Source: a virus
Taxonomy: Duplodnaviria > Heunggongvirae > Uroviricota > Caudoviricetes
IMG/VR virus record: IMGVR_UViG_2617271049_000009
Coordinates: 1-40,392 of that record
Length of the DNA stretch: 40,392 nucleotides
Strand: one strand, 5' to 3'
The position numbers and the translations under genes are program-made. The notes beneath the pieces are model-generated. The model was given only the letters and a program-made list of their open reading frames with translations. It was not told the DNA's origin and ran no database searches. Positions 1,769-39,024 of the stretch are shown piece after piece. Within the stretch, counting starts at the first letter, position 1, and each line of letters opens with the position of its first letter.

Positions 1769-3277
1769 ATGAAACCATCCATAGAACAACTTCTACATAT
1801 CTACGGGCCGATGTCCTCATCTGCCTTAAGAGAAAAACTGATAGCCAATGGCCTAACAGAAGTTAACGCCAGACAGCGAATCTCCCGCGTTGGAGGTGAT
1901 GTTCAACGTTTTACTCATTTTTCTTTGCCCAAAAATGAAGCATTTCTCTATCTGACAAAGGACTATAACTCTCGTCGATATTGGATTGCATTGCTTGAAA
2001 GTCATGTAAATGCAAGAACAGTCTATGCTCACACCTTTTTCGCTTTCCACCCTTATCAAGGGGCGATCCCGACATATCTTTTTAGCAAGGTTTCAGGGAG
2101 TCCGGACAAACTGAAGGGACACATTGCGTCAAGCCGTCTTGAAGCGCAATTGCTTAAAGGTTCAGTTCTGCGTAGGGAAGTTGATGTCGTTTTGGGGGAT
2201 TGTCTTGTTACTTACATAAATAATATTAACGGGGTAACGGATACCCAACATGTCCGAAACCAATTGCTGGTTGAAGATATTCTCATTAAAGGTGTAGCTG
2301 ACTGGATTAGACACAATGGCCTTGGCAGCTTTAATAAGGTCCAAGTCCGTAACTCTCAGAATATGCCTTCATTTAGCCATCACCATTGGGACATATGTGC
2401 TCCGTCATATATTATGCCTTTAGCAACAGTACAAAAAGGTGAAATGAGTAATGGCTTCATTGTTGCAGATGTCATATACAATGATTTAGATAGCAAAAGC
2501 ATCCAAACCTATCTCACGAAAGTACAGCGATGCAGAAATATGCGAAATACTCGCCCGTTTCTAGCTATGCTGATTGCAGAACGTTTTGATCCAGAAGCCT
2601 TTCGCCTTGCGAAACAAGCTGGTGTAATGGCTACAACAGTATCTAACCTACTTGGTCAAGACATTTCAGCACTACTGTCCAGTTTATTAAATACTCTTAA
2701 TCGTGCCGGTGCCATTGCGGCAGCAAACCCAGAAAAAATCAACGAACTATTTAAAGGACTTACGAGGATTGAAGGCGCCGCAATCAATATAAGAGGCGTA
2801 ATGTTTGAAATGTTAGTTGGTCACATCGTACTGAAAACCCAAAATGTCAGCACTGTTGACTTGAATAAACAAATCAGTACCGAGGCAGGTAAGGCTGAAA
2901 TAGATGTGATTGGTTTTAGAGGCGAAGCAGAAATTAAGTGCTACGAATGTAAAGGCTATGAAGTTAAGCGACTAATTTCAGTCGAAATGATCGAAAAGTG
3001 GCTCGAACGAGTTCAACGCATCAGAAAATTCTACAGTCAGATTCATGTGTACCGTGACCGAAAAATGACTTTTTCATTCTGGACCTCATCAGATTTTGAA
3101 CCTGAAGCACTTGAGCTGCTGCTTCATCAGAAGCAAAGAAATACAAAAATATCATTAGACTGGAAAAATGGACGTGACATTCTTTCCATTGTTAAGGAAG
3201 ACAATCTGAAATCAATTGCAGATGTTCTTCAGGAACATTATCTTCGACACCCACTGGCTCCTGATGCAGATATGTAA
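1769..3277 (+). CDS. hypothetical 502-aa protein; predicted N-terminal winged-helix-like region and C-terminal PD-(D/E)xK-like nuclease motif; candidate defence or restriction-type cargo gene
   Basis: Long uninterrupted ORF with ATG start, convergent with the invertase gene; C-terminal segment AEIDVIGFRGEAEIKCYECKGYE fits the hhhD-x(n)-(E/D)xK pattern; lower GC than phage core genes; sits where e14 carries mcrA. Confidence 0.7.
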   Translation: MKPSIEQLLHIYGPMSSSALREKLIANGLTEVNARQRISRVGGDVQRFTHFSLPKNEAFLYLTKDYNSRRYWIALLESHVNARTVYAHTFFAFHPYQGAIPTYLFSKVSGSPDKLKGHIASSRLEAQLLKGSVLRREVDVVLGDCLVTYINNINGVTDTQHVRNQLLVEDILIKGVADWIRHNGLGSFNKVQVRNSQNMPSFSHHHWDICAPSYIMPLATVQKGEMSNGFIVADVIYNDLDSKSIQTYLTKVQRCRNMRNTRPFLAMLIAERFDPEAFRLAKQAGVMATTVSNLLGQDISALLSSLLNTLNRAGAIAAANPEKINELFKGLTRIEGAAINIRGVMFEMLVGHIVLKTQNVSTVDLNKQISTEAGKAEIDVIGFRGEAEIKCYECKGYEVKRLISVEMIEKWLERVQRIRKFYSQIHVYRDRKMTFSFWTSSDFEPEALELLLHQKQRNTKISLDWKNGRDILSIVKEDNLKSIADVLQEHYLRHPLAPDADM

Positions 3278-26743: not shown

Positions 26744-27322
26744 TTAAGCACTTTCTTGCTCACTCTGCAACTTAAATCTGTCGCTATTTGTGCCGAATGC
26801 GTCACAAACTGGAGCGTACAGGATCGATTCTGCAAGACTTAGCCAAGTGTCAATGCGTCGACGACAGGTGATCAGCGGCCAGTCAGGATGTTTAGCCTGC
26901 AGTTCATTGGCCATCTGCAACTTGCTCTTACGAAGACGATACCGGTCAACAATCACGCTATAGAGCGATCGGTAGTCATCATTCATCAGTACTGAAGCAA
27001 TGACACCGTCCACTAACAACCCTTCTTCATCTGAACAGAACGCCAGGCCGCTTTTATTTTTGCTGTTGAGAATTTCACGCAGGTACGCTTCAAGTTCAGG
27101 CTTGGTGATACCCGCTATCTTCATCCGGCGTAGCGCTTCATTGATAGCTGTCTTGGTGATTTTCCCGGATGCCAGAAGCTGGTTAAACATGTTTCCACCA
27201 CTACCACCGCCGATATAAGACCAGCGGCCCCACATGCGCAACTTGCCTTGTATCCAGATACTTTCCAGAGTACGAAGGCGAACCATTTCACCTGATTTGC
27301 CAACTTCAGAAGGATTAATCAT
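26744..27322 (-). CDS. late-gene antitermination protein Q-like (192 aa)
   Basis: Position immediately upstream of the lysis region and terminator; LRMWGRW motif recalled from Q-family antiterminators. Confidence 0.65.
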   Translation of the reverse strand: MINPSEVGKSGEMVRLRTLESIWIQGKLRMWGRWSYIGGGSGGNMFNQLLASGKITKTAINEALRRMKIAGITKPELEAYLREILNSKNKSGLAFCSDEEGLLVDGVIASVLMNDDYRSLYSVIVDRYRLRKSKLQMANELQAKHPDWPLITCRRRIDTWLSLAESILYAPVCDAFGTNSDRFKLQSEQESA

Positions 27323-32880: not shown

Positions 32881-33573
32881 ATGAACATAGGAAACCGAGT
32901 CAGACAACTTCGCCAAGCGAAGAACATGAAAATCGCCGATCTCGCTGAAGCGATAGGAGTAGATGCGGCGAACATCTCGCGCTTAGAAACGGGTAAGCAA
33001 AAACAATTTACCGAACAAACACTGAGTAATATTGCCAAGAGCTTAGGTGTTGATATTGCTGATCTCTTTACCTCTGCCCACAAAAGTAATACTGTATATA
33101 AAAACAGTAATAATGAGGATGTTGCGCAGGTGAAGGATGTGTTCCGTATTGAAATGCTGGATATCAGTGCCAGTGCGGGAAATGGCCTTATCCAGGGCGG
33201 TGATGTCATTGATGTGATTCATGCCATCGAATACAGAACTGATAATGCTGTATCAATGTTCGGCGGACGACCAGCCAATCACATCAAAGTTATCAACGTT
33301 CGTGGGGACAGTATGTGTCCAACCATTGAGCCAGGAGATCTCATCTTCGTTGATGTCAGCATCAATCAGTTTGATGGTGATGGTATATATGTCTTTGGTT
33401 TTGATGACAAAATATACGTTAAAAGACTTCAAATGATTCCTGACAAACTGCTGGTGATTTCTGATAACCAGATTTACCGTGAATGGGGAATTACTAGCGA
33501 AAACGAACACCGATTCATGGTCTTTGGAAAGGTCTTAATCAGTCAGTCGCAAACCCTTAAGAGACATAATTAA
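32881..33573 (+). CDS. cI: CI-type prophage repressor, XRE HTH plus S24 (LexA-like) peptidase domain (230 aa)
   Basis: N-terminal HTH (MKIADLAEAIGVDAANISRLETGK); C-terminal S24-like region with GDSM (Ser) and VKR (Lys) motifs. Confidence 0.88.
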   Translation: MNIGNRVRQLRQAKNMKIADLAEAIGVDAANISRLETGKQKQFTEQTLSNIAKSLGVDIADLFTSAHKSNTVYKNSNNEDVAQVKDVFRIEMLDISASAGNGLIQGGDVIDVIHAIEYRTDNAVSMFGGRPANHIKVINVRGDSMCPTIEPGDLIFVDVSINQFDGDGIYVFGFDDKIYVKRLQMIPDKLLVISDNQIYREWGITSENEHRFMVFGKVLISQSQTLKRHN

Positions 33574-33627: not shown

Positions 33628-33664
33628 TTGCATATCTCGCAAATATCACTTGCATATCTCGCAA
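33628..33664. promoter_or_regulatory. two direct copies of TTGCATATCTCGCAA spaced 22 bp (candidate OL-type operators or promoter elements)
   Basis: Exact 15-mer repeated at 33628..33642 and 33650..33664 immediately after the cI terminator. Confidence 0.45.
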
Positions 33665-33828
33665 TTTAATTTTATCTTTTGTTCCAGACCAACTACAGGA
33701 TTACAACAAAATCTAGTTGCAACACGGTGCATGTGTCGTAAGCAGTCAGTAAATGTCAAAAACGAACAGGCAGGACGCCCACGAAGTAGCCGCCTGGGGC
33801 ATATGAAGTCCAGGATGATTCGTTAGCA

Positions 33829-33855
33829 ACAAAAAAGCGCCCTACAGGACGCTTA
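33829..33855 (-). terminator. terminator-like hairpin for the convergent 144-aa gene, lying upstream of and antisense to the 68-aa gene
   Basis: Minus-strand reading AGCGTCCTGTAGGGCGCTTTTTTG. Confidence 0.4.
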
Positions 33856-33912
33856 GCTCTTTAACAATCTGGTCCCCATCAACAAGTAACTGATAACTTG
33901 AGGAGGTGTGAA

Positions 33913-34525: not shown

Positions 34526-34540
34526 TTCTTTTCCTTTTGC

Positions 34541-34592
34541 GTTGTTGGGGATAACCAGATTAACCGAATCCTTGTTGTTGGGGAATAACCAG
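34541..34592. repeat. two direct repeats GTTGTTGGGG(A)ATAACCAG spaced 33 bp, 16 bp upstream of the 144-aa gene start
   Basis: Read directly; near-identical 18/19-mers. Confidence 0.6.
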
Positions 34593-34812
34593 GTCCACCT
34601 CGCCTGATGTGGCTAAAAGCAGGCACATAACAGCTAAGTATTTTTAACCAGAGAGAATCCTTAGCGTTGTGGTGAATGCGGCTCAGCGCACGCGGGTTAA
34701 GGTTGAGGCTGACAGTCGACCTTCTGTGGATACCCACCCGTCTGGTGTGCAACCTTCGCCAGGCACCGGGAGGCACCCGGCACCACAACTTTATGCTGTG
34801 TGTAGTCCTGGA

Positions 34813-34945
34813 GGTACCAGTTTGTACCCTTGCTTCCGGCTGGTACCGTCCTTTTTACAAAACAGAGAAGAGCATCACCGGACGACGGGCTCATAACCCA
34901 ATCCATCCGGGCGGCTGCCACCGCAGGTGTTCTTCTCTGTTTTGT
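34813..34945. other. GC-rich non-coding region with nested inverted repeats: 8-bp stem GGTACCAG/CTGGTACC and a perfect 15-bp inverted repeat ACAAAACAGAGAAGA / TCTTCTCTGTTTTGT separated by 59 nt; candidate structured RNA or recombination/regulatory site
   Basis: Inverted repeats read directly; no plausible ORF (only Arg-rich junk frames); GC content higher than both flanking genes. Confidence 0.4.
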
Positions 34946-34993
34946 GGAGAAACTAATCGGCCTTGCAGGGTCGATATGATGAGGAGCAGCAAA

Positions 34994-35356
34994 ATGGCTA
35001 GCGAACGCAGTACTGATGTGCAGGCATTTATCGGGGAGCTGGACGGCGGCGTATTTGAAACCAAAATCGGCGCAGTTCTCAGTGAAGTCGCTTCCGGTGT
35101 GATGAACACGAAAACCAAAGGTAAGGTCTCACTCAACCTGGAAATCGAACCATTTGATGAGAACCGTGTGAAAATCAAACACAAACTCTCATATGTTCGC
35201 CCGACTAACCGCGGGAAAATTTCCGAAGAAGACACCACCGAAACGCCGATGTATGTCAATCGCGGTGGTCGCCTGACTATTCTGCAGGAAGACCAGGGAC
35301 AGTTACTGACTCTTGCCGGTGAACCTGACGGAAAACTCCGCGCAGCAGGTCGTTAA
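34994..35356 (+). CDS. hypothetical protein (120 aa), YfdP-like by position and size
   Basis: ATG with GAGGAG SD; the longer ORF from 34676 has an Arg-rich N-terminal extension judged non-coding. Confidence 0.55.
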   Translation: MASERSTDVQAFIGELDGGVFETKIGAVLSEVASGVMNTKTKGKVSLNLEIEPFDENRVKIKHKLSYVRPTNRGKISEEDTTETPMYVNRGGRLTILQEDQGQLLTLAGEPDGKLRAAGR

Positions 35357-37263: not shown

Positions 37264-37568
37264 TGACCACTTTTACCGACAAAGAACTGATTAAAGAAAT
37301 TAAAGAGCGTATCAGCAGCCTTGACGTGCGAGACGATATTGAGCGCCGTGCTTATGAAATCGCACTCCTATCTCTGGAAGTAGAACCAGATGAACGCGAA
37401 ACTTATGAATTATTCATGGAAAAGCGTTTCGGTGACTTAGTAGATCGTCGGAGAGCAAAAAACGGCGATAACGAATACATGGCATGGGATATGACTCTCG
37501 GTTGGATCGTCTGGCAGCAACGAGCTGGTATCCATTTTTCAACAATGTCACAGCAAGAGGTGAAATAA
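37263..37568 (+). CDS. hypothetical protein (101 aa), YfdT-like
   Basis: ATG overlapping the upstream stop (TAATG); followed directly by the excisionase gene. Confidence 0.5.
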   Translation: MTTFTDKELIKEIKERISSLDVRDDIERRAYEIALLSLEVEPDERETYELFMEKRFGDLVDRRRAKNGDNEYMAWDMTLGWIVWQQRAGIHFSTMSQQEVK

Positions 37569-37778
37569 TGGAGCCATACAGCCTCACACTCGATGAGGCC
37601 TGTCATTTTCTCAAGATATCCAGACCGACTGCCATTAACTGGATACGCACAGGGCGTCTTCAGGCAACACGCAAAGATCCCACTAAGAATAAATCTCCTT
37701 ACCTCACAACACGACAAGCCTGCATTGCGGCTCTTCAGTCTCCGCTGCATACTGTCCAGGTGAGCGCGGGTGATGGCA
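37568..37778 (+). CDS. xis: excisionase / AlpA-like DNA-binding protein; 3' end lost in N gap 37779..37788
   Basis: ATG with GAGGTG SD; HTH-like segment LKISRPTAINWIRTGRL; immediately upstream of the integrase. Confidence 0.65.
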
Positions 37779-37788
37779 NNNNNNNNNN

Positions 37789-38934
37789 GGTGAAATATGG
37801 TACGCCAGTTTCACATTGCCGAACGGTAAAAGATTTAAACAGTCTCTTGGAACAAAGGACAAAAGGCAGGCGACAGAACTCCATGACAAGCTAAAGGCTG
37901 AAGCATGGCGGGTCAGCAAACTTGGTGAAATACCTGATATAACGTTCGAGGAAGCGTGTGTCAGGTGGCTTGAAGAGAAAGCACATAAAAAATCACTGGA
38001 CGATGACAAAAGCCGGATCGGATTCTGGCTTCAACATTTCGCAGGAATGCAACTAAGAGACATTACTGAATCAAAAATTTATTCAGCAATGCAGAAAATG
38101 ACGAACCGGCGTCATGAGGAAAACTGGAAACTCAGGGCAGAAGCATGCAGAAAAAAAGGGAAACCTGTTCCAGAATACACGCCAAAACCAGCGTCCGTTG
38201 CAACGAAGGCTACGCATCTTTCATTTATAAAGGCCCTACTAAGAGCCGCAGAGCGTGAATGGAAAATGCTGGATAAGGCACCAATTATTAAAGTGCCTCA
38301 ACCAAAGAATAAACGGATCCGCTGGCTGGAGCCCCATGAAGCACAAAGGCTGATTGATGAATGTCCGGAGCCATTAAAGTCTGTTGTTGAATTTGCACTG
38401 GCAACAGGCTTAAGACGCTCGAACATCATCAACCTTGAATGGCAACAAATAGATATGCAGCGCCGGGTGGCATGGATAAACCCGGAAGAGAGTAAATCAA
38501 ACCGCGCAATTGGCGTTGCGCTGAATGATACTGCATGTCGCGTTTTGAAAAAACAAATCGGGAATCATCACCGTTGGGTATTTGTGTACAAGGAAAGCTG
38601 TACCAAACCAGACGGAACGAAAGCGCCAACAGTAAGGAAGATGCGGTATGACGCAAACACAGCCTGGAAAGCGGCGCTGAGACGGGCTGGTATTGATGAT
38701 TTCAGATTTCACGACTTGAGACACACCTGGGCAAGTTGGCTGGTTCAAGCCGGAGTCCCGTTGTCAGTGTTACAGGAAATGGGAGGCTGGGAGTCTATCG
38801 AAATGGTTCGTCGATATGCTCACCTTGCACCTAATCACCTTACCGAACACGCACGGCAAATAGACTCGATCCTGAACCCATCGGTCCCAAATTCGTCCCA
38901 GTCAAAAAATAAGGAAGGTACTAATGATGTGTAA
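37789..38934 (+). CDS. int: tyrosine site-specific integrase; 5' end lost in the N gap
   Basis: Reading frame open from the gap ([16 protein letters not shown]...); C-terminal catalytic region with HDLRHTWAS...[15 protein letters not shown] (R, HxxR and Tyr motifs); ends 15 nt from the tRNA 3' end. Confidence 0.92.
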
Positions 38935-38948
38935 CTTATTGATTTAAA

Positions 38949-39024
38949 TGGTGCCGATAATAGGAGTCGAACCTACGACCTTCGCATTACGAATGCGCTG
39001 CTCTACCAACTGAGCTATATCGGC
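38949..39024 (-). tRNA. thrW: tRNA-Thr (anticodon CGT), phage attachment site
   Basis: Reverse complement reads GCCGATATAGCTCAGTTGGTAGAGCAGCGCATTCGTAATGCGAAGGTCGTAGGTTCGACTCCTATTATCGGCACCA, a 76-nt cloverleaf with CGT anticodon and encoded CCA. Confidence 0.9.

Follow-up and report, generated by a model that had tools for sequence, protein, structure and literature searches.

The locus analysed here raises the question of what is carried by the GC-rich stretch that separates a divergent gene of 144 amino acids (aa) from the gene yfdP in a lambdoid prophage of the SfIV/SfV type. The stretch lies at positions 34526-34993 of the IMG/VR virus record IMGVR_UViG_2617271049_000009, whose 40,392 nucleotides (nt) were analysed as a whole and are referred to as the window. 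An earlier reading of the letters (the original prediction) had found no credible open reading frame (ORF) there and had proposed either a structured RNA, perhaps nut-like or antisense, or a recombination site. We find that the region consists of three unrelated parts, namely direct repeats, an RNA related to the STnc100/PasD family (module B) and a three-way-junction RNA (element C). Together they form a non-coding leader, read on the + strand, that lies ahead of yfdP in the early-left (pL) operon under repressor control. This anatomy is held with much more confidence than the last steps of the mechanism proposed below.

A non-coding leader in three parts

In BLAST comparisons, the 700 bp around the region match Shigella phage SfIV at 99.4% identity and several E. 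coli chromosomes at 100%, and 2860 of 5426 complete E. coli genomes (about half) match the region. Its GC content, 0.53-0.57 across 34600-35099 against 0.35-0.47 in the flanks, agrees with the GC richness described before. The region is crossed by mechanical ORFs on the + strand (75, 49 and 226 aa) and on the - strand (114 and 74 aa), and existing annotations give some colour to the idea that it encodes a frameshifted hypothetical protein or an N-terminal extension of YfdP. Two of these ORFs are listed as coding sequences in SfIV, the 226-aa ORF in frame with yfdP and the 114-aa ORF on the minus strand. PGAP places a "frameshifted hypothetical protein" pseudogene at the equivalent of 34669-34979, and the annotation of Salmonella D23580 contains a 177-aa ORF that spans element C plus yfdP (STMMW_20251).

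The coding potential was assessed by a codon-position test, for which the region was aligned to ST64B, Salmonella phage 118970_sal3, mEp460_4F5 and phiES15 in five candidate frames. In all five frames the substitutions were distributed evenly among the three codon positions (for example 12/14/19 and 23/27/25), and none displayed a third-position excess. The insertions and deletions relative to the homologues measure 1, 4 and 20 nt and are not multiples of three, and the in-frame upstream extension of yfdP matched no PHROG family. The region is therefore non-coding, in line with the original prediction. A frameshifted ORF of the kind that had been named as evidence against this exists formally as the PGAP pseudogene, but it has no coding signature and is an annotation artefact. 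Furthermore, the variation preserves base pairs and not codons, and the downstream gene changes (yfdP, rdgC-like or yfdR) while element C stays. We regard a protein-coding role of the region as highly improbable.

The direction of transcription follows from the immunity region. Since the operators lie downstream of the cI-like gene, pL reads rightwards on the + strand through the region into yfdP. A copy related to the operator TTGCATATCTCGCAA is also present in the cro-cI spacer. The coordinates of the features are given in Table 1.

Table 1. Positions of the leader features and of surrounding elements (window coordinates unless another sequence is named).
Feature	Positions	Strand	Remarks
Direct repeat, copy 1	34541-34558		GTTGTTGGGGATAACCAG
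Direct repeat, copy 2	34575-34593		GTTGTTGGGGAATAACCAG
Inverted repeat copy AATCTGGTCCCCATCAACAA	33866-33885		20 nt, 75% complementary to 34542-34561; left boundary of the cassette, outside 34526-34993
Module B, divergent STnc100/PasD-family RNA	34636-34858	+	full Rfam model including the terminator
Folded core of module B	34666-34789	+	
Helix P1	34666-34674 with 34781-34789		GUUGUGGUG with CACCACAAC; closing helix
Hairpin P2	34678-34693		
Hairpin P4	34742-34747 with 34757-34762		
Hairpin P5	34766-34780		invariant
Pseudoknot	34699-34705 with 34750-34756	+	AAGGUUG with CAACCUU (P4 loop)
Terminator-like hairpin	34813-34820 / 34840-34847	+	8-bp stem GGTACCAG/CTGGTACC (GGUACCAG/CUGGUACC), 19-nt loop
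Element C, three-way-junction RNA	34857-34945	+	
Perfect 15-bp inverted repeat	34857-34871 / 34931-34945		ACAAAACAGAGAAGA / TCTTCTCTGTTTTGT; 59 nt between the arms
Long stem of element C	34857-34876 with 34926-34945		20 bp
Arm H1	34878-34910		22-mer GACGGGCUCAUAACCCAAUCCA at 34884-34905; loop CUCAUAA at 34890-34896
Arm H2	34911-34924		
Rest of the leader	34946-34993	+	conserved GGAGAAAC at 34946-34953, able to pair with the upstream U-run
Small hairpin	34956-34975	+	
Shine-Dalgarno sequence GAGGAG	34982-34987	+	yfdP ATG at 34994
cI-like repressor gene	32881-33573	+	followed by a terminator
Operator-like TTGCATATCTCGCAA, two copies	33628-33664		downstream of the cI-like gene
Conserved pL-proximal leader, other copies	~1910-1970 of L129; ~2670-2730 of ST64B (L006)		
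tRNA-Thr(CGU)	38949-39024		end of the early-left operon; sole tRNA called in the window (ARAGORN, Rfam)
Q-type antiterminator	26744-27322	-	

Two conserved RNAs and a cassette joint

The expectation of a structured RNA was borne out by two separate structures, which are backed by covariation and have homologues in more than 100 phage contigs. The first of them, module B, was recognised in a permissive scan by its match to the Rfam family RF02076 (38.4 bits, E = 1.2e-6, model positions 1-206), the gathering score of which is 47 bits. The other B-type copies, found in ST64B, phiES15, mEp460 and two metagenomic variants (L016, L084), score under this cut-off as well. Canonical STnc100 copies with the same 22-mer reach 87-161 bits, and the window therefore holds a divergent subfamily. 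The shared 22-mer, CACCGGGAGGCACCCGGCACCA, is exact at 34764-34785 and in more than 120 IMG/VR contigs. L013 and its relatives in IMG/VR are canonical-type STnc100 copies with a compensated P2 (CCUUUC...GAAAGG) and the exact 22-mer, yet they too remain below the gathering score; the Rfam model therefore under-detects the STnc100 family.

The fold of module B (z = -2.7) is a core closed by the helix P1, which contains the hairpins P2 and P4 and the invariant hairpin P5. Helix P1 covaries, its outer pair being G-C in 13 sequences and A-U in 10, and 92.6% of its cells are paired compared with 43-52% in slid controls. The core is completed by a pseudoknot, which joins the segment immediately following P2 to the loop of P4 and is absent from the consensus-structure line of RF02076. 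About 20 distinct covarying sequence pairs, among them CCAGUC/GACUGG, CUGGUGU/ACACCGG and AGACUGACAAA/UUUGUCAGUCU, were observed at the same position in 80 unique family members. Compensated versions are present in phiES15 (AAGGCUG/CAGCCUU) and in phage P1 (UGGUUAU/AUAACCA). A pseudoknot of at least 6 bp was formed by 81% of the true partners and by 20% of the swapped-partner controls. For P4 and the pseudoknot, column-wise counting on the MAFFT alignment was inconsistent in register, and a per-sequence analysis with this cross-partner control was used. A CsrA site in the P5 hairpin was also considered; its GGA lies at the stem-loop junction and its loop motif is non-canonical, so that it is left as speculation.

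The 8-bp stem noted in the original prediction is present, although not as an independent element. It is the 3' terminator of the STnc100-like RNA, being followed by GTCC and then by TTTTT at 34852-34856 and aligning to the terminator of RF02076 with an 18-nt insertion. Module B constitutes a new subfamily of a known family; it scores below the threshold of that family, occupies a new context and adds a pseudoknot to the fold. The subfamily occupies the pL leaders of the window, ST64B and phiES15. In phiES15 the module and its terminator precede kil and gam. Degenerate B-like copies occur in mEp460 and in Klebsiella phages.

Directly adjoining module B is element C, built around the perfect inverted repeat that the original prediction had located correctly. 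The repeat can be extended to 25-nt arms with 84% complementarity, and the long stem can be extended by pairing of the upstream U-run with a conserved downstream GGAGAA. On top of the stem, the arms H1 and H2 form a two-armed head. None of 200 shuffled sequences folded as well as element C (z = -6.1). In a set of 24 distinct long-stem sequences, 96% of the cells are paired, compared with 39-50% in controls slid by 1-3 columns. Ten pairs have compensatory changes, and the 39 compensated cells compare with 11.7 in shuffles, a count of 39 being reached in none of 500 shuffles. Several of the pairs are G.U, and one is U.G in 21 of the 24 sequences. Our own covariance model, R1, which was built from the long-stem alignment, scores 104.8 bits on the + strand of the window and 42.2 bits on the - strand. 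The structure of element C therefore belongs to the + transcript and not to duplex DNA. The suggestion of an antisense RNA is not supported for a similar reason, as the G.U pairs, the T-run and the Rfam match of module B all indicate the + strand.

Element C appears to be an undescribed conserved RNA motif. Rfam gave no match to it at E <= 10 in the window and none at E <= 5 for the Klebsiella form described below, and no description was found in the literature on yfdP/yfdQ, phage initiator-tRNA mimics or lambdoid tRNA-like and ribonuclease III (RNase III) elements. The 22-mer GACGGGCUCAUAACCCAAUCCA of arm H1, which varies at two positions at most, was found in over 120 IMG/VR contigs as well as in 25 species-representative genomes, the latter nearly all of them Enterobacterales (Escherichia, Shigella, Citrobacter, Enterobacter, Klebsiella, Kosakonia, Leclercia, Mixta, Erwinia, Pantoea and others). 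Two further matches (the L245/L249 pair) stand apart. One, in a contig labelled Chryseobacterium sp., is surrounded by the complete yfdP context of enterobacteria, which suggests contamination; the other, in a Promineifilaceae metagenome-assembled genome, has an unrelated coding-like context and is probably due to chance. The length of element C in the homologues is 89, 90, 91, 92, 110, 113 or 114 nt. Across 110 distinct contexts of the long-stem form, a T-run lies at most 45 nt upstream in 106 and GGAGA[AT] lies downstream in 107. The gene that follows belongs to the yfdP family in about 80 contexts and is rdgC-like in about 16 and yfdR-like in about 8. An STnc100-type core is located upstream in 31 of the 110.

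Part of the head resembles a tRNA. The 14-mer CGGGCUCAUAACCC is identical to the anticodon arm of E. coli metY (tRNAfMet) and comprises three G-C pairs that close the loop CUCAUAA; a conserved AAUCCA follows. Three G-C pairs at the anticodon loop are a hallmark of the initiator tRNA. In Klebsiella and Raoultella phages the same head is set in a short form with a 6-bp stem, GGCCUG/CAGGCC, which is followed by (A/G)CCA in every copy. This form lies between Q and the lysis genes and begins 6 nt (GATAAT) downstream of a genuine tRNA, which is tRNA-Asn, tRNA-Arg or tRNA-Thr. The long-stem-only model R1 recovers the short-form copies at 36-43 bits; ARAGORN and the Rfam tRNA model RF00005 call no tRNA on element C or on the short-scaffold copies. 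In two Klebsiella phage contigs a degenerate B-like element lies about 150 nt after the short form.

Phage P1 (AF234172, L003) carries two diverged copies of element C in the leader of its ban operon, at 2651-2748 and 2928-3008 (model R1). The second copy directly abuts a complete B-type STnc100-like element upstream of tciA. The P1 leader (1987-3126) contains four long-stem hairpins (z = -4.6 to -8.0), of which two have the tRNAfMet-like head and two have other heads; one of the latter two holds a T-arm-like GGGUUCGAAUCCC (GGGTTCGAATCCC). Two real tRNAs and degenerate as well as complete STnc100-like elements are found alongside. The annotated minus-strand ORFs plp and upl of P1, which lie opposite to the RNA elements, may be spurious. 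In the same phage, GUUGCGG serves both as the 3' strand of the last long stem and as the 5' strand of the closing helix of the next STnc100-like element, so that the two helices are mutually exclusive. The co-occurrence in P1, Klebsiella and lambdoid phages indicates that modules B and C travel together, and with tRNAs, in early and late operons.

Such mobility is also what would be expected of evolutionary debris. Element C could be a decayed Met/fMet-type phage tRNA and module B a decayed small-RNA copy. Recombination between phages would have spread them, and they would persist only because their stable hairpins shield or punctuate the mRNA, the head itself having no specific function. Both elements lie at mosaic junctions and behave as movable modules, the copies in mEp460 and the Klebsiella phages are degenerate, the likeness to the anticodon arm is partial, and the prophage CPS-53 of K-12 has lost both elements and nevertheless keeps yfdP. 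Against decay speaks the 22-nt head, which is nearly invariant across many Enterobacterales genera while the stems compensate and the length of the second arm is free. An invariant head amid compensating stems is the signature of purifying selection on the head. Even the diverged P1 copies hold ACGGG-NUCAUAN-CCCAAUC, and the stem sequence ACAACAG.AAG.GC is conserved in them too. We therefore consider it clearly unlikely that the two elements are remnants.

The third part of the region, the direct repeats, is a separate feature at the DNA level that is unconnected with the downstream RNAs. Both copies of the pattern GTTGTTGGGG(A)ATAACCAG are present; contrary to the earlier description they are not tandem, as their starts are 34 nt apart, and a 1-nt insertion distinguishes them (18 and 19 nt). 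They adjoin the start of the divergent 144-aa ECs1072-family gene on its upstream side. Together with the inverted copy further left they enclose a cassette of a 68-aa gene (+) and the 144-aa gene (-), the 3' ends of which overlap by 29 nt; Pfam has no family for either protein. The BLAST homology to other phages breaks off at precisely 34541 and 34595. In PhiR29_1, equivalent inverted repeats flank another minus-strand gene, and the left and right repeats are altered together (AATCTGGATATCC... and ...GGATATCCAGATT). SfV contains yet another insert, and the common sequence resumes at about 34595. These breaks of homology and the co-varying repeats show that the repeats are the joint of an exchangeable cassette within the pL leader. 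The direct repeats are possibly also the promoter region of the divergent gene, for which a simple scan found no sigma-70-like promoter.

The proposal of a recombination site is thus plausible for the direct repeats and for that part of the region only. A broader version of it would explain the whole region as a DNA site, the inverted repeat forming a cruciform or hairpin for recombination, replication or protein binding and the direct repeats binding a regulator. The perfection of the inverted repeat in the window copy is consistent with this, as is the coincidence of the repeats at 33866-33885 and 34541-34593 with module boundaries and their co-variation between phages. However, the G.U pairs of element C would be A.C mismatches on the other strand. 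The covarying three-way junction, the asymmetric invariant head and the T-run context on the + strand indicate an RNA, and the short-scaffold form has no long repeat at all. An explanation of the region as a whole at the DNA level is quite improbable, although the direct repeats may be such a site.

Transcription and proposed function

Evidence for transcription is provided by the homologue ST64B, where the two modules occupy a gap free of ORFs that separates cI from the yfdP homologue. In Salmonella D23580, STnc1310, a non-coding RNA of the ST64B prophage, and STMMW_20251 rise together about 10-20-fold under peroxide or nitric-oxide shock, conditions that induce ST64B, and the signal falls from STnc1310 to yfdP and on to yfdQ (PMC7067206 and its supplement). 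By coordinate transfer, STnc1310 corresponds to 2874-2947 of ST64B (L006) and ends at a separate terminator upstream of module B. The pattern is consistent with transcription from pL through a leader whose several terminators are partly effective. The STnc1310 region is a third terminator-ended GC-rich RNA in the ST64B pL leader and has no counterpart in the window.

The relatives of module B are expressed and bound by regulatory proteins. Eleven STnc100-family copies are present in EDL933, one of which was confirmed by Northern blot (PMC5331693), and the Hfq-binding RNA EcOnc27/sRNA103 overlaps an STnc100 copy downstream of stx2B (PMC12711010). PasD was judged to be an STnc100 relative by Zhu, Shabalina and Storz (bioRxiv 10.64898/2026.05.13.724894). 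The stability of PasD is Hfq-dependent (PMC8550237), and PasD2 is the top and most abundant partner in CsrA-bound RNA pairs (bioRxiv 10.64898/2026.08.12.744399).

On balance we consider it probable, though far from certain, that both RNAs are processed out of the pL transcript to give stable small RNAs and that the terminator attenuates yfdP. The pL leader bears two independent, mobile RNA modules. Transcripts that stop at the terminator of module B would yield a structured RNA of about 190-220 nt of the STnc100/PasD kind, which by analogy with its relatives may act in trans as an Hfq- or CsrA-associated RNA, and the same terminator would attenuate transcription into yfdP. Upon read-through, element C folds into a double-stranded stem of 20-25 bp with a two-armed head, and the stem is predicted to be an RNase III site. 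Cleavage by RNase III would free the head as a small stable RNA and separate the yfdP mRNA from the upstream small RNA. In the Klebsiella phages, tRNA-processing enzymes would release the head from the short scaffold that ends in CCA. The occurrence of the same head in a CCA-ending mini-tRNA beside tRNAs suggests that the released head is probably the active, trans-acting part. As the functional unit it is probably a mimic of the initiator-type anticodon arm, or a decoy for something that recognises such an arm.

Several observations weigh against this proposal. The transcript evidence comes from the ST64B homologue and not from the window, and the parts of PMC7067206 available to us list the upstream STnc1310 as a small RNA in Salmonella and do not list the B-type copy of ST64B. 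Module B is under the Rfam gathering score (38.4 against 47 bits) and goes unreported in gathering mode. A scan found no sigma-70-like promoter for module B, so that its expression depends on read-through from pL across the antisense cassette. The tRNAfMet likeness extends over 14 nt only, the two lower anticodon-stem pairs being invariantly replaced by mismatches. Finally, the linkage of the long stem to an upstream terminator and to downstream yfdP or rdgC-like genes fits a role in cis equally well.

Such a role in cis would be antitermination or attenuation of the early-left operon by put-, nut- or riboswitch-like elements in a phage that lacks N, so that the leader decides on read-through into yfdP, yfdQ, yfdR, xis and int. 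Family matching found no N-like protein among the pL-side ORFs tested, and the position in the pL leader is the expected one. In the window, ST64B and phiES15 the first gene is preceded by between one and three intrinsic terminators, and transcription in ST64B still continues into yfdP. The long-stem form lies almost always between a terminator and a yfdP or rdgC-like gene, and module B, a closed junction that contains a pseudoknot and leads into a terminator, is aptamer-like. Upstream in the pL leader, at 33857-33868 (+), there is a perfect rrn-type boxA, GCTCTTTAACAA, which could mediate Nus-factor-dependent antitermination at pL. It is preceded, within 33836-33868, by the hairpin AAGCGCCCTACAGGACGCTT. 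Viewed on the minus strand, this hairpin with its T-run resembles a terminator of the divergent cassette. The boxA-like terminator tail GCTCTTTTTACAA of many homologues is not conserved in the window.

Other findings are difficult to reconcile with a role in cis. Each element is single in the window, with no partner on the pR side, and no alternative pairing was found between the terminator and either element. The elements have no likeness in sequence or shape to HK022 putL. The putL site was located in the HK022 genome; it had no similarity to 34636-34945 by eye, and model R1 found no match in HK022, so that a put RNA was rejected as a candidate. With no N homologue found and no second copy of either element in the window, the nut-like RNA of the original prediction is not supported either. 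The canonical STnc100 genes stand alone, each with a promoter at P1 and a terminator of its own, and their products accumulate as small RNAs. The same head as a CCA-ending tRNA-like unit in tRNA arrays would make no sense for a nut or put site. We consider regulation in cis unlikely on this evidence, although its chance is appreciable.

A more far-reaching version of the trans-acting proposal can be formulated, to which we assign only a small chance. According to it, element C is an undescribed phage RNA family that displays an initiator-type anticodon arm on interchangeable release scaffolds, with the head acting as a mimic in trans. The pL leaders of lambdoid phages and the ban operon of P1 would use a long stem of RNase III type as the scaffold, and the tRNA arrays of Klebsiella phages a mini-tRNA that ends in CCA. 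The released head might be a decoy for nucleases or factors that recognise the anticodon stem-loop of tRNAfMet, or a modulator of initiation. The enteric VapC/MvpT toxins cleave at this stem-loop. In the early operons of temperate enterobacterial phages, element C and the pseudoknotted STnc100-like module would then form RNA cassettes that alternate with each other.

Further features of the prophage were recorded around the region. The genes downstream on the pL side are yfdP, yfdQ (DUF2303), an HD-domain 5'-deoxynucleotidase gene, xis and int. The translation of the ORF at 37484-37894 contains XXXX, owing to a short run of ambiguous bases at about 37790, which lies in the integrase region or shortly before it. 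A stretch of about 60 nt of the pL-proximal leader, AACAGGCAGGACGCCCACGAAGTAGCCGCCTGGGGCATATGAAGTCCAGGATGATTCG at 33767-33824 (+), is kept in SfV, PhiR29_1 and ST64B despite their differing operators and immunity; its interpretation as a structured put-like RNA was not supported by its fold (z = +0.5). On the pR side, C4-antisense-RNA and isrK exceed the Rfam thresholds in ST64B (L006 409-597, -) and mEp460 (L127 323-511, -), and neither is present in the window.

The recognition of the two RNAs corrects the annotation of a region to which current pipelines assign hypothetical proteins or a frameshifted pseudogene. The STnc100/PasD family gains a new subfamily, a new genomic context and a pseudoknot, and a second conserved RNA motif, which connects lambdoid, P1-like and Klebsiella phages, is defined with a covariance model. 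If the tRNAfMet-like head is indeed a mimic, temperate phages would have a new route against host translation or against tRNA-targeting defences. If the elements instead act in cis, they would explain early-left expression across several terminators in lambdoid phages without N.

Comparison with known systems

A put RNA has two stem-loops, measures about 70 nt and lies just downstream of pL, and a lambda-type nut site combines boxA with a boxB hairpin and is present in both the pL and the pR operon. The HK022 put and lambda nut sites share with the elements described here the position in the pL leader, and the put phage likewise has no N. The elements of the window differ from them in being single-copy, and no N-type protein was found.

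Module B and canonical STnc100 have in common the 22-nt core, the helix P1, the hairpin P5, the position of the pseudoknot, the terminal hairpin with its U-run and the prophage location. They differ in P2, which is divergent in sequence and register (GAAUGCGGCUCAGCGC compared with GAAUCCCCCUGUGCGGAGGGG), and in the terminator loop, which is much larger in module B. The genomic context differs as well. Module B is located in the pL leader before the early-left genes, whereas canonical STnc100 is found in the late region near Q, stx, nanS-p and holin genes. The canonical copies lie upstream of nanS-p-type esterase or holin genes, and many have a sigma-70-like promoter that starts transcription at P1.

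RNase III processing hairpins are known from phage early transcripts such as the lambda N leader and the R1.1-type sites of T7. Like element C, they place a long, near-perfect stem between a leader element and the first early gene. Element C is distinguished by a conserved branched head instead of a simple internal loop, and its cleavage is a prediction.

The likeness of element C to tRNA is confined to particular parts. The head and the initiator tRNA both have a 7-nt loop with U33-like and CAU positions and three closing G-C pairs. The D arm and the T-loop motif of a tRNA are missing from element C, and the lower anticodon stem is replaced by an invariant internal loop. In the window copy, the acceptor stem is replaced by the stem of 20-25 bp, which is followed by GGAGAAAC in place of CCA. 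The short form of the Klebsiella and Raoultella phages has further features in common with tRNA, namely an acceptor-like stem of 6 bp, a neighbouring hairpin able to stack on it and an NCCA that is encoded.

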